The notes beneath the pieces are model-generated. The model worked only from the letters and a program-made list of their open reading frames with translations, had not been told where the DNA came from and made no database searches. A stretch of 47,511 nt of DNA from Escherichia phage ECO95 1-6-1: the sequence record OR845258; one strand, given 5' to 3'. The position numbers were made by a program, and so were the translations under genes. Every line of letters starts with the position of its first letter. Position 1 is the first letter of the stretch. Positions 5,212 to 34,378 of this stretch are shown piece by piece.

Positions 5212-5763
5212 CTACAGTTCAATGCCAAAAGACTCTTTGATCATCCTCTTATTATGCTCAACCTTTGCTAATGCTTCATCCCCATAAACACTTATCACAT
5301 AACGATTGTATGCCTTTACTGCTGATACAAGCGAACGGTAATATCCAAGATGTTTATCGTTGCAAGCAGCTCTCCACCTAGGAGTTCCTTTGTAGTGATA
5401 CCAATAAACGCCAATATATCCAGTTGTATTGCTGTTCATCAAATCAGTGTTGCTTCTGTTTCCCGTGGCGGACACTGGTCTCAAGTTGCATAGCCTGTTG
5501 TCCTTTTTGTTTCTATTTATGTGATCAAGGTAATCAGGTTCCTCACCAGTAAAAAAATACCAAATAACCCTATGGGTGAGATACCTAACACCATCAACAG
5601 TTATGCATGTATAGTCACTACCACATAAATTCCTTTCTGCGTTACTTCCTGCCGCCCTATTGCCAGCAGCCATTCTGCGCTTGATTGTTCCATCGGCGGA
5701 AATGATGAATAGGTGTGAAAGGCGAGCCAATGAAGGCATTTTATTGCGATTTATTGATTTCAT
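5212..5763 (-). CDS. HNH homing endonuclease with AP2-type DNA-binding domain
   Basis: HNH motif HRVIWYFFTGEEPDYLDHINRNKKDNRLCNLRPVSATGNRSN followed by AP2-like YIGVYWYHYKGTPRWRAACNDKHLGYYRSLVSAVKAYN; ATG at 5763 (M30 of the track ORF) with GAGGAG RBS. Confidence 0.85.
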   Translation of the reverse strand: MKSINRNKMPSLARLSHLFIISADGTIKRRMAAGNRAAGSNAERNLCGSDYTCITVDGVRYLTHRVIWYFFTGEEPDYLDHINRNKKDNRLCNLRPVSATGNRSNTDLMNSNTTGYIGVYWYHYKGTPRWRAACNDKHLGYYRSLVSAVKAYNRYVISVYGDEALAKVEHNKRMIKESFGIEL

Positions 5764-5860
5764 TTTTACTCCTCGGTCATAAGGATGGTCTGTTGGTTGT
5801 ATGCAGCAGCCCGGAGACCAATCCGGGCAGGGAGCTACCCTTTGCTGCAAGTAAATTATA

Positions 5861-6814
5861 TCATTTAGCTTTCTTCTTGTTTACCTTTTCCCATGATTCC
5901 CTTTGCCTATCTAGACGCTCTTGGCTTGATTCCAAAATTACAGGCTTACCGTCCATTAGCAATGCTGGACTCTGAGAGCAATGACAATTCCTGCGATTAG
6001 CAACTTCACTATAGAACGTATCAATCTCCTCTGGCGTGTAAAACCGCCCGTGCCGTGCCGCGTGAGTAAATCTCGTTCGACCAGGTAATAATGCCGATTG
6101 CCACAGCATCACCGTTTCAATTCCCAATTCCTCGCGCGCCTCAATGACTTCCCGCCTGTTAGCCTGTCGCAGCGTTCCGGTGATTTCAGTCTGCGCTATC
6201 TGTTTCGCGTAGCTGTGAGACACATCGACACGCTTAATGATGTCAGCCTCAACATCGCGAGGATTAGCACCCCGGGCAATGCCTTCCATAATGACAGATG
6301 CCAGTTGTTGACGGGAATAATCGCTCAACCCACGCCAGTCCGAGTAACCAGCCGTATACGCAAGCCGCAGCCGATTCAGATATGGCTCACTGTAGAGTAT
6401 CGCGGCAATCGGCCTCTGTTCGGCGTAAACCGGAGACAGACTTGATAGTTCTGAGTTGGCCTTCTGCGTTCCGGCCTGATATGCATCACCAATGAACACA
6501 TTAGCCCACATCCTGCCGTGACCGAAGTCGTCACCTTCCAGCAGAATCTCGTCAATCAGCGCTTGTAGCTCATCCATGAACGTAGCAGCACGCGCACTAC
6601 TGAAATCGTAGAAATACAGGCCACTTGATTCTGCGTTAGTCTGAGTATGCGGAATGGTGCGAAACAACTCAAGCGCACTAGTCCTGAGTTGTTTGTATTT
6701 GCGCGTTATCACCTTATCCATCTTCGACAGTCGGGTTGCAGCACCTAACGGGTCGGTCAGACTCTGCGATATGCGCGGTTGGGGTAGCCTTGCATTAAAC
6801 CGGAGTATCTTCAT
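5861..6814 (-). CDS. putative head morphogenesis / minor head protein (Mu F / SPP1 gp7-like position)
   Basis: Immediately downstream of the portal on the same strand; internal ATG at 6814 with GGAAG RBS overlaps the portal end. Call is mainly positional. Confidence 0.55.
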
Positions 6815-8207
6815 TTTCGTCTTCCGGCGGCGTGTCTTCGCGGTAGGTTTCGTCGAGTTCAATCGGGTCCATACCAACCATGCCGCGCGCTTCATCGACG
6901 CTCAGCAACGCAGATTGACCAGCATCAAAGAACGATTTGTTCGCAGTGGCGAGTTTAGCCAGCAATTCAGCTTTATCTAGTTCTGAAGGAGCAAGCAGGT
7001 CATCCCACTTAACCTTGTAGCCATTTTCCGGGGCTTTATCGACAATGCCGAACTGAATCATGCGCTCAACGAACATTGAAATAACATAGTCAACCCACGT
7101 TTCTCGACGTTGCTTGGCGGTCATCGCCTCCTGCATCTTGTCTTCGTCGCTTGCAAGGCGCCCGGTCTGCTGCCCAAATATGACGGTGAACGGAAGCGCC
7201 ATTGATGCGGCGAACTGGTTGGCGGCTACCTCCCATGTTGGCTTCGGGTCAGCTGGAGTCACAGCGAGAACTTTTGCATCCGCACCCATTGTGAACATAG
7301 CGGCGTCGATGCCTGAGTTTAACGCCTCAATGTTCTCATTCATAATGTCGGTAAGTTCTTCAATATCGACACCCATCGACTGCGCAAGACTTGCTGGCGT
7401 TACGTTATCCTTCGTGTAGTTTACCGCCAGTTGACGGCTGGCATTCTTCAGGAAGCCTTCTGCTGAACTACCGGAAACCTTAGCCATGTCGATAAGGCTA
7501 TTGTAACCAGCACGCAACATCGGGATGCCACTGAACATGCTACCATCAAAACTACCCTCAGCCAGAATGATGATACGGTCAGGGTGAATCTGCACGGAAC
7601 GCTCAGGCTTGCCGTCGCTGTCGAAATCCTCTACGGCGCTTTCCTGATATTCGTACATCTCAGGCATTCCGTAGTCTTCGCTGGTTTCGTCGTTATTCCA
7701 CGCACTGACACGGAGCTGCTCTTCCCACACTGGAATAAAGCGAACAATGGATTTATCTTTAATGCGGCGGGTTTTGGTGATGTCAACAGGCTCGCTCCAC
7801 TGCTTGCCGTCACGGATTTGCAGGATAACAGCGGAATAGCGGTTAATAGCATTGCGCTTGTCAGCCTCCTTGATGAACGGATAGGCGCGCTTCATCATGT
7901 CGTTGATGGACAGCTCCCACGGCGTTGAACTCTTGTCATCCTCGCCATCTTCTACCACTTCAGGGTATTTCTGCCAGCATTTATTAATAATGCGGTTAAT
8001 GCCAGCGGCTGCAGCTGGATGTCGCTCGTAGGCATAGCGGAACATCTCGGCGGTGATTTCCTGCGGGTAGCCCAACTCCTTCCACATGAACTCACGTTTC
8101 TGGTCCAGATTCTTCCCACCAGCACAAAGCCGTTGTTGCTGAAGCGCCCGGTTATTGTTCGCCACGCGATCGCGTATGTAGGCGTTTAAAGCGTCGATTT
8201 TTGACAT
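6795..8207 (-). CDS. portal protein
   Basis: 470 aa, acidic C-terminus, GGTGA RBS; between terminase and head morphogenesis genes. Call by size, position and composition. Confidence 0.7.
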
Positions 8208-8212
8208 ATGTC

Positions 8213-8245
8213 ACCAATAAAAAATCCCTCACGATGGAGGGATTA
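8213..8245 (-). terminator. rho-independent terminator (minus strand) just upstream of the portal
   Basis: On the minus strand: hairpin ATCCCTC-CATCGT-GAGGGAT followed by TTTTTATT. Confidence 0.5.
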
Positions 8246-33078: not shown

Positions 33079-33782
33079 TATGTATTCCTCGCTTTTTTCG
33101 CTTTGCGTTCAGCCAGTGCCTTCATGCGCTCACGGTCTGCCTTAGCCTGATCGTACTCTGCCGCGCGCTCTTCTTTCGTTAATCCTTTCGGCTCTGGATA
33201 TTTATTCTTAATCATCATCTGAAACTCTGTCATGGACAGGTTTTCGGCCTCATCGCGCGTCATGTCGAAATGCGTGCGTGCTGATATGATGTATTGAGAC
33301 GCATGAAACTCGTTTGTAGTTTTCTTGCCATGCTCTTCCAGACGTTCAGGAACTTTGAGTGGAGACTTGCCGATGATGCCGTGCTGCATCAGGTTACGAG
33401 CAATAATAATAATGTCGTTCACTGGCATGATTCCCGGTACGTATCGCACGCCGCGCGGAGTTGGCTTCCATCCACCAATCAGCACTGAAGCATCATCCTC
33501 ACAGCATGACTGCATGACGATGTAGGCCGCACTCAGTACATGGCGACCATACGCAGGCTTGCTGATAGTCTTCATAACCTGCATCTGCGCACCAAATGGC
33601 AGGTATTCGACGTGCTGCAATGGCGCAACATAATCAATGCCATTGAGCTTAGCGTACACCTCGACGATTTCTTTTGGTGTGCCGATGGAGTTCATTGCTC
33701 CAAATGAAGGTTTAAAGAAAAATGAGGTATCAGCAAGCGATATCCTCATTTCTCCAATATCTGTCAATGGTGTTCTGTTCAT
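33078..33782 (-). CDS. putative tail assembly chaperone
   Basis: 234 aa directly upstream of the tape measure gene (1-nt overlap); basic/acidic C-terminal tail; no frameshift site identified. Confidence 0.45.
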   Translation of the reverse strand: MNRTPLTDIGEMRISLADTSFFFKPSFGAMNSIGTPKEIVEVYAKLNGIDYVAPLQHVEYLPFGAQMQVMKTISKPAYGRHVLSAAYIVMQSCCEDDASVLIGGWKPTPRGVRYVPGIMPVNDIIIIARNLMQHGIIGKSPLKVPERLEEHGKKTTNEFHASQYIISARTHFDMTRDEAENLSMTEFQMMIKNKYPEPKGLTKEERAAEYDQAKADRERMKALAERKAKKARNT

Positions 33783-33833
33783 AACAAGCCTCTATCTTGC
33801 AATGAGTCATTATATCATTAGAGAGAAAACCAA

Positions 33834-33862
33834 TTGATGATGGTGTAGATATGATGTAGATT
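33834..33862 (+). promoter_or_regulatory. sigma70-like promoter with GTAGAT elements
   Basis: TTGATG + 17 nt (containing GGTGTAGAT) + TAGATT, upstream of the HNH gene at 33896. Confidence 0.45.
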
Positions 33863-33895
33863 TGTATCTTAATTGTCTTGATTGGTGGTTTTAAG

Positions 33896-34378
33896 ATGAA
33901 TATTTTGGATGATATTTTTGAATATGATTGTGGTGCCTTGAAATGGAAAGCAAGGAGGTCTTCAAATGCCATGGCTGGTCATAATGCAGGAACTGTTCGA
34001 CCAGATGGTTATTTGCAGGTTAGCTTGTTTGGCAAAACGCAGCTTGTGCATAGAGTTATATGGGAAATGCATAACGGCCCAATACCTGACGGTATGGAGA
34101 TTGATCACATTAACCATGACAGGCTGGATAACAGAATTGAAAACCTGAGGATTGTAAGCAGGCAAGAAAACAGTGTAAATCTTTCAAAAAGGATAGATAA
34201 CACAAGTGGTATTGTTGGCGTTAGCTGGTCCAAAAGAATGGGGAAGTGGAGGGCGAGAATATCAGTTAACAAGAAAGAGATTTCATTGGGTTTTTTTAGT
34301 GATATCAATGATGCAGGGAGAGCTAGAAAAAATGCAGAAATTTATTATAACTTTCATGAAAACCACGGCAAAAAGTAA
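33896..34378 (+). CDS. HNH homing endonuclease with AP2 domain (paralog)
   Basis: ATG at 33896 (the track starts at a TTG at 33878); HNH motif IDHINHDRLDNRIENLRIVSRQEN; AP2-like SGIVGVSWSKRMGKWRARISVNKKEISLGFF; roughly half the residues match the 12014 paralog. Confidence 0.85.
   Translation: MNILDDIFEYDCGALKWKARRSSNAMAGHNAGTVRPDGYLQVSLFGKTQLVHRVIWEMHNGPIPDGMEIDHINHDRLDNRIENLRIVSRQENSVNLSKRIDNTSGIVGVSWSKRMGKWRARISVNKKEISLGFFSDINDAGRARKNAEIYYNFHENHGKK

Follow-up and report, generated by a model that had tools for sequence, protein, structure and literature searches.

Four HNH-AP2 genes of Escherichia phage ECO95 1-6-1 as probable homing endonuclease cassettes

Escherichia phage ECO95 1-6-1 (record OR845258; the window analysed here is the whole 47,511-nt stretch) carries four open reading frames (ORFs) that encode an HNH nuclease together with an AP2-type DNA-binding domain. 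Their sequences and those of related phages indicate that they are very probably homing endonuclease genes (HEGs) of the free-standing type, belonging to the family that joins an HNH_3 (I-HmuI-like) domain to AP2, with a small cassette for each gene. We refer to them as H1 (5212..5763, minus strand, 183 aa), downstream of the head-morphogenesis gene; H2 (12014..12517, minus strand, 167 aa), upstream of a gene at the position expected for a small terminase subunit (TerS-like) and of the large terminase gene (TerL); H3 (29739..30230, plus strand, 163 aa), antisense in the interval between a gp80-like virion gene and a minor tail gene; and H4 (33896..34378, plus strand, 160 aa), the first gene of an antisense accessory cluster. 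The mobility of the four HEGs is well supported by sequence comparison: each gene is missing at a definable site in most close relatives and is present in few phages, in agreement with the first-pass annotation, which had called them mobile homing genes. They are ordinary for this phage group, new members of a known HNH-AP2 HEG family, and the only points that go beyond routine are a leader hairpin upstream of H1 and the replacement of host gene ends.

Domain architecture of the four proteins

An N-terminal HNH_3 domain (Pfam PF13392) scores above the curated cut-off of 24.8 bits in all four ORFs, with 42.8 bits for H1 (E 4e-11), 77.3 bits for H2 (E 7e-22), 51.8 bits for H3 (E 6e-14) and 85.9 bits for H4 (E 1e-24). 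A profile made from seven family sequences matches I-HmuI of Bacillus phage SPO1 (PDB 1u3e) in its N-terminal half (E 1.6e-4) and also matches solved AP2 domains (WRI1, 7wq5, E 8e-6; TEM1, 7et4, E 0.0026; Plasmodium AP2, 3igm, E 0.3). The HNH_3 core aligns with I-HmuI over about 75 residues that include the DH...N...NLR...N pattern. Residues D70, H71, N73, D78, N79, R80, N83, L84, R85, N92 and N95 are invariant across the seven sequences, and these columns align with the DH...NLR...N catalytic and metal-binding positions of that enzyme. I-HmuI is a strand-specific nickase, and it binds DNA through helical and helix-turn-helix modules rather than through an AP2 domain. By analogy, H1-H4 probably act as I-HmuI-like monomers that nick one strand. 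I-HmuI, unlike the four genes here, is intron-encoded, and its sequence similarity to the family profile is weak.

In an AlphaFold (AF2) model of H1 (mean pLDDT 68.6) the C-terminal domain, with pLDDT of 70-90, is predicted to form a sheet of three strands (residues 119-124, 127-134 and 137-142) followed by a long helix at 145-179. A Foldseek search with this model ranks AP2 domains first (1gcc, rmsd 2.4 Å over 56 columns, probability 0.92), at non-significant E-values of 0.3-0.7, so this match counts as supportive only. The earlier assignment of HNH and AP2 domains to ORFs at these four positions is confirmed; the AP2 part is secure at the level of the family and less so for H1 taken by itself. 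The earlier estimate that H2 and H4 match at about half of their residues also holds, since they are 54.5% identical over 154 aa (71% over 302 nt at the nucleotide level); the remaining pairs share 33-41% of their amino acids. Shine-Dalgarno-like sequences precede the starts of H1 (GAGGAG, 5763), H2 (GGAGGAG, 12517), H3 (GGAGG, 29739) and, in a weaker form, H4 (GGTGG, 33896). The four ORFs are AT-rich, with a GC content of 0.376-0.409 against 0.455 for the window. A six-frame hidden Markov model scan of the window found no family member beyond H1-H4, and searches with other HEG classes as queries (Skate gp09, swi2 gp06, the T5orf172-like gene of PHA46_2 and the gp68 type) found nothing there beyond the four copies.

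The combination of HNH and AP2 domains defines an established HEG family (PMC10448857, citing Magnani 2004; PMC5714182, His-Me finger group 2). Like the HNH-AP2 or 'IPA-HNH' HEGs of Barth et al. 2023 (PMC10448857), H1-H4 have an N-terminal HNH_3-type nuclease and a C-terminal AP2 domain, and they are free-standing, multi-copy, sporadic in distribution and located beside essential structural or packaging genes. The HNH domains of the ICP1 IPA-HNH proteins are too divergent for Pfam HNH_3, unlike those of H1-H4, which match it strongly.

Sporadic distribution and cassette anatomy

By megablast the window groups with Skatevirus-like siphophages of Salmonella, Escherichia and Klebsiella. Three contigs of Salmonella phage S.Kent 1-2-1 match it at 100% identity, and Skate, IME207, Akira, HC6 and others match it in pieces at about 88-91%. 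H1 is carried at the same site by three phages, namely the window, Segz_1 of genus Segzyvirus (gp75, 99.5% amino acid identity) and ST46 of genus Macdonaldcampvirus (93%). H2 occurs in five: the window, SEzh_1 (99.4%), SeSz-2 (95.8%), NX263 and Vi II-E1 (89%). H3 is present in 8 of 152 related records, among them IME207 and Skate, whose gp79, annotated as an HNH endonuclease, is 98.2% identical to it. H4 is found in the window and, with 100% amino acid identity at the same site, in PSH-1, where coverage is low because the PSH-1 record is cut there. The homologs in Skate (gp79), SeSz-2, Vi II-E1, Segz_1 (gp75) and PSH-1 are the same genes at the same sites. Their records give generic names or none (endonuclease in SeSz-2 and Vi II-E1, "hypothetical" for Segz_1 gp75, no annotation in PSH-1) and are silent on cassette limits, replacement gene ends and evidence of mobility.

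Comparison with related phages, which the first-pass annotation had proposed as a check, came out in favour of mobility; some carriers at the same site belong to other genera. Empty sites are seen in sequenced relatives for all four positions, and phages of different genera have the same sharp cassette limits. The cassettes are also more alike than their surroundings: identity is 98.3% in cassette 1 and 89.1% in its flanks for Segz_1 (p 2e-15), 92.3 and 84.5% for ST46, 93.6 and 85.1% for cassette 2 in Vi II-E1, 95.8 and 87.2% for cassette 3 in Skate, and 99.3 and 93.0% for cassette 4 in PSH-1, with Fisher p values of 1e-6 to 2e-15 across all four sites. Identity is still elevated over roughly 100-200 bp next to the cassettes and falls off beyond that. 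The synonymous divergence (dS) of H3 from its Skate counterpart is 0.23, against 0.53 and 0.90 for two adjacent tail genes, which argues for later arrival and not constraint alone. Between carriers the ratio of nonsynonymous to synonymous divergence (dN/dS) of the HEGs is 0-0.10, a sign of purifying selection, so the proteins appear to be kept functional. Paralogs occupy further sites in relatives, including one that overlaps the TerL start and Skate gp34 and gp68, and relatives usually have three to five HEG copies per genome. The description of these loci as probable recombination hot spots fits both the raised identity right around the cassettes and the published pattern, in which phage HEGs are concentrated around the genes for terminase, capsid and tape measure (PMC10448857).

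Alignment against relatives without the gene in question places every HEG in a discrete cassette of 0.66-0.96 kb. Three of the four (cassettes 1, 2 and 3) lie inside the 3' end of a host gene. They bring a diverged substitute terminus, so that the host gene stays intact, and part of the original terminus persists downstream as a remnant. Cassette 1 (5214..5927, minus strand, 714 bp) takes the place of 42 bp of Bas78 in blastn comparison with relatives that lack the HEG. It contains a replacement 3' end of the head-morphogenesis gene (5861..5927), the leader and H1, all on the minus strand, and the head-morphogenesis gene of the window (5861..6814, minus strand) ends in a diverged yet homologous tail. 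Just after the H1 stop, at 5189..5212 on the minus strand, lies the remnant of the ancestral 3' end, ANKKPSK*, which corresponds in alignment to the final 8 codons of this gene in Bas78 and Skate and forms part of a bidirectional terminator hairpin.

Cassette 2 (12010..12792, minus strand, 783 bp) stands in place of 53 bp in KFS-SE2, swi2 and INT55. On the minus strand it holds a replacement 3' part of a host gene of about 57 aa, a promoter-like element that matches the consensus (TTTACA-N17-TATCAT, 12637..12665, minus strand), a 44-aa ORF and H2. Downstream of H2, at 11916..12008 on the minus strand, 30 untranslated codons, SPDALEIVHVQTRTENAWCYAGKRDNDGVQ*, are the remnant of the small gene's ancestral 3' part and match the C-terminus of the intact small gene in swi2, INT55 and KFS-SE2; the empty site lies in the swi2 and INT55 gene around ...TTCCCGGATGCGCTTGAA... 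The 44-aa ORF (12483..12617, minus strand) overlaps the H2 start, has a zinc-ribbon-like CxxC...CxxxC pattern, matches phrog_16925 weakly and is conserved in Vi II-E1.

Cassette 3 (29578..30239, plus strand, 662 bp) holds H3 antisense and is absent in CECAV_048 and Sa179lw, in which the gp80-like stop codon and the minor tail start codon share bases (TAATG) at the empty junction ...CTGCCGGAG|TACCCATAATG... The C-terminal codons of the gp80-like gene are replaced in the window (LPEHSN* vs LPEYP*), and the remnant of the old end, CCGGAGTACCCATAA, lies ahead of the minor tail start at 29560..29574. This cassette also has a promoter-like consensus match, TTGAAA-N17-TACACT (29583..29611, plus strand).

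Cassette 4 (33774..34736, plus strand) is a variable segment of 963 bp, delimited against IME207, ASO78B, seszw and Skate, with a divergent promoter region, H4 and a 90-aa ORF (34450..34722, plus strand). An antisense cluster of small accessory genes occupies the interval between the tail-assembly-region gene and the major tail gene in every relative, and H4 is for that reason a variable member of an existing cluster. Of the earlier statement that H3 and H4 were inserted antisense between tail genes, the orientation stands, both being on the plus strand amid minus-strand tail genes, but H4 is no lone insertion. The 90-aa ORF was co-transferred with H4, is 99% identical in PSH-1 and shows weak, sub-threshold similarity to tailspike N-terminal domains (Pfam Tail_spike_N, E 1e-3). 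A self-similarity search around each cassette found no repeated flanks, only the coding similarity of H2 and H4.

The neighbouring genes, named from the annotated Skate genome and from PHROG and Pfam scans, are all on the minus strand. They comprise the portal gene (6795..8207), TerL (9794..11218), the TerS-like gene (11348..11773; PHROG function unknown), which sits where the small terminase subunit would, a tail block of tailspike, tail protein and two minor tail genes, the gp80-like virion gene (30227..30703), the tape-measure gene (30703..33078), the tail-assembly-region gene (33078..33782) and the major tail gene (35110..35826). Other variable spots occur among them. Beside cassette 2, an extra insert of about 300 bp (12990..13292; ORF 12978..13349, minus strand, phrog_2510, unknown function) is missing in all five relatives compared, Vi II-E1 among them. 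The tape-measure ORF encodes 791 aa in the window and 1096 aa in Skate, and identity to Skate collapses past about 31700, which suggests a large indel or a replaced segment relative to Skate. Two intervals that are empty in the window are occupied in relatives: in that between the tape-measure and gp80-like genes, KE12 has a gene annotated 'amidase' in antisense orientation and swi2 a T5orf172-like endonuclease, and that between the portal and head-morphogenesis genes has an endonuclease in Skate and PHA46_2.

Homing and the alternatives to it

The steps of homing can be proposed from I-HmuI-type and AP2-containing HEGs (PMC5714182, PMC10448857). In a mixed infection with a relative that lacks the cassette, the AP2 domain would bind a sequence that spans the empty site, and the single HNH site would then nick or cut nearby. 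Recombinational repair templated on the HEG-carrying genome would copy the cassette and a short flank into the recipient. The carrier allele would be immune, as its target is interrupted by the cassette and the neighbouring gene end has diverged. The HEGs are probably expressed from promoter-like elements of phage type, located within each cassette or at its margin.

Several points weigh against this interpretation. The Pfam AP2 model (PF00847) matches the C-terminal parts of H2 (23.6 bits, E 7e-5), H3 (31.9 bits, E 2e-7) and H4 (22.9 bits, E 1e-4) below its cut-off of 33.3 bits and gives no match in H1; the E-values of 1e-4 to 2e-7 in H2-H4 are still suggestive. Cleavage and homing by H1-H4 are predicted by analogy with related enzymes, and the promoters are consensus matches only. 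The higher identity of the cassettes could partly reflect constraint, which is unlikely because dS is also lower. The architecture of remnant plus replacement implies that the founding insertions, at a minimum, came about by illegitimate or hybrid recombination and not by clean homing, and that these events happened to preserve the host genes. Finally, cassette 4 is bracketed by repeated promoter-like motifs and could move by ordinary recombination with no help from a nuclease.

In an alternative that we consider unlikely, the cassettes are passive or domesticated cargo, moved only by ordinary homologous or microhomology recombination and kept for a benefit to the phage, such as cutting competitor phages or AP2-mediated regulation, rather than for homing. 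The repeats that flank cassette 4 are of a type enriched 5-fold in the window, that cassette belongs to an accessory cluster that varies overall, the remnants testify to insertions by routes other than homing, and strong purifying selection fits a benefit to the phage. Yet the catalytic residues are intact in all four copies, identical sharp cassette limits recur across phage genera, and several family members dispersed over different sites are what HEGs classically show; moreover, the cutting of competitor genomes is itself the mechanism of homing and marker exclusion. That the genes are instead inactive relics, decaying leftovers of past invasions with no current activity, is extremely improbable. 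Decay probably occurs in the family, as the H2 ortholog of Vi II-E1 (about 210..740 of the compared stretch) has a 1-bp deletion near codon 22 and is annotated as a truncated coding sequence of 145 aa, and the NX263 ortholog aligns in two pieces; these defects may reflect HEG decay or sequencing error. All four copies in the window, however, are full-length with intact motifs and ribosome-binding sites, and the low dN/dS between carriers argues against loss of function.

The first-pass annotation had also noted that some HNH proteins assist terminase cutting, and H1-H4 do resemble the packaging HNH nucleases of the HK97 gp74 type in that HNH genes lie near terminase genes. One or more copies, especially H2 or H1, might act with terminase to cut concatemeric DNA in the manner of HK97 gp74: H2 immediately precedes the TerS-like gene and TerL; H1 comes after the head-morphogenesis gene, with the same operon orientation, where the packaging and head operon ends; in many relatives the TerL start is overlapped by an HNH-AP2 gene; and the H1 leader hairpin is shared with such TerL-adjacent genes. 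We regard this role as very unlikely, because no HNH gene is TerL-adjacent in the window, H2 is rare and once frameshifted, and the TerL is a Terminase_3 protein (Pfam Terminase_3 plus Terminase_3C). HK97-type HNH-dependent terminases are of the Terminase_1 type. The window has no HNH gene between the TerS-like gene and TerL, unlike Skate, KFS-SE2, INT55, YX3973 and CECAV_048, and none is seen in swi2 across the 2.7 kb of its terminase region that the comparison covered. The distribution of H2 is limited to its five carriers, with absence from KFS-SE2, swi2, INT55 and Skate and a frameshift in Vi II-E1, and that of H1 to its three. Unlike the HK97 gp74 type, H1-H4 are not conserved next to terminase and combine HNH_3 with an AP2 domain for sequence-specific binding, as is typical of HEGs. 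A protein that homes may also serve in packaging, and the same caution about a packaging role of HNH genes has been voiced (PMC10448857); a paper on genome reduction in seszw is silent on HNH genes and states the packaging mode as unknown (PMC9825161). On balance, mobile homing cassettes account best for the four genes.

Leader hairpin, promoter-like motifs and significance

Upstream of H1 lies a 46-nt leader hairpin, GCAGCAAAGGGTAGCTCCCTGCCCGGATTGGTCTCCGGGCTGCTGC (5803..5848, minus strand), preceded by the sequence TGATATAAT (5855..5863) and followed by the GAGGAG ribosome-binding site. It folds better than shuffled sequences (RNA fold z -2.9), and an Rfam scan of the H1 leader region found no family, only weak terminator-like matches on the other strand. 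A single mismatch separates the hairpin from the leader found ahead of TerL-adjacent HNH-AP2 genes in Skate, YX3973, KFS-SE2 and INT55, despite only 35% identity between their proteins and H1. It occurs in 34 phage records, in single copy in all but one, and an HNH-AP2 ORF directly follows it in all eight IMG/VR contigs. One near-invariant hairpin with two proteins 35% identical at two genomic sites would fit a dedicated cis-regulatory RNA or DNA element, a candidate for the control of HEG expression or for a role in homing. The Skate and CECAV_048 records begin inside the hairpin loop, and this was considered as a sign of a cos or pac site, which would speak for a packaging role. It was rejected as evidence, since according to the Skate paper the contig was closed by PCR with no determination of termini, and the hairpin is missing in most relatives.

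A tentative extension, to which we give rather less than even weight, is that the HNH-AP2 cassettes of this phage group travel as mobile modules that bring along a 46-nt leader hairpin as a portable part and insert in a 'self-healing' mode. In this mode the cassette would enter the 3' end of an essential gene, and the diverged substitute end would keep the gene working and render the allele immune to cleavage. A parallel has been described in fungal mitochondrial genes such as Allomyces atp6, where an inserted HEG supplies a new 3' terminus and the former one is still present as a remnant. As there, the cassettes described here bring a diverged substitute C-terminal segment and the original persists downstream; the fungal case differs in its nuclease families and hosts, and here the HEG is not fused in frame.

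The proposal that HEGs have their own promoters is plausible from the sequence, and promoter scans gave weak consensus matches barely above shuffles. The putative promoters lie at 12637..12665, 29583..29611, 33834..33862 and 5855..5863. With at most one mismatch allowed, GATGTAGATT is found at 18 places in the window against 3.3 expected, mostly in intergenic or divergent regions, at sites that include 652-688, 3487-3551, 9268-9373, 33853, 34410, 34431, 36589-36668 and 39553. This motif probably acts as a promoter element specific to the phage, and the copies to either side of H4 (33853, 34410 and 34431) could serve as recombination substrates flanking the cassette. The extended -10-like TGATATAAT occurs three times against 0.5 expected, each time just upstream of a minus-strand gene: H1 (5855..5863), the tail-assembly-region gene (33809..33817) and the major tail gene (35863..35871), all on the minus strand.

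The main value of these results is for annotation and comparative genomics. Four genes recorded as "HNH endonuclease" or "hypothetical" in Skatevirus-like phages can be read as mobile cassettes with definable ends, which account for local mosaicism in the head, packaging and tail modules, and an HNH gene close to terminase should not automatically be taken for a packaging factor. To our knowledge, few AP2-type homing enzymes have been characterised, and the mapped empty and occupied sites offer ready substrates for studying their target specificity. For phages intended for biocontrol or therapy, HEG cassettes of this kind represent dispensable cargo and drivers of recombination in mixed infections.

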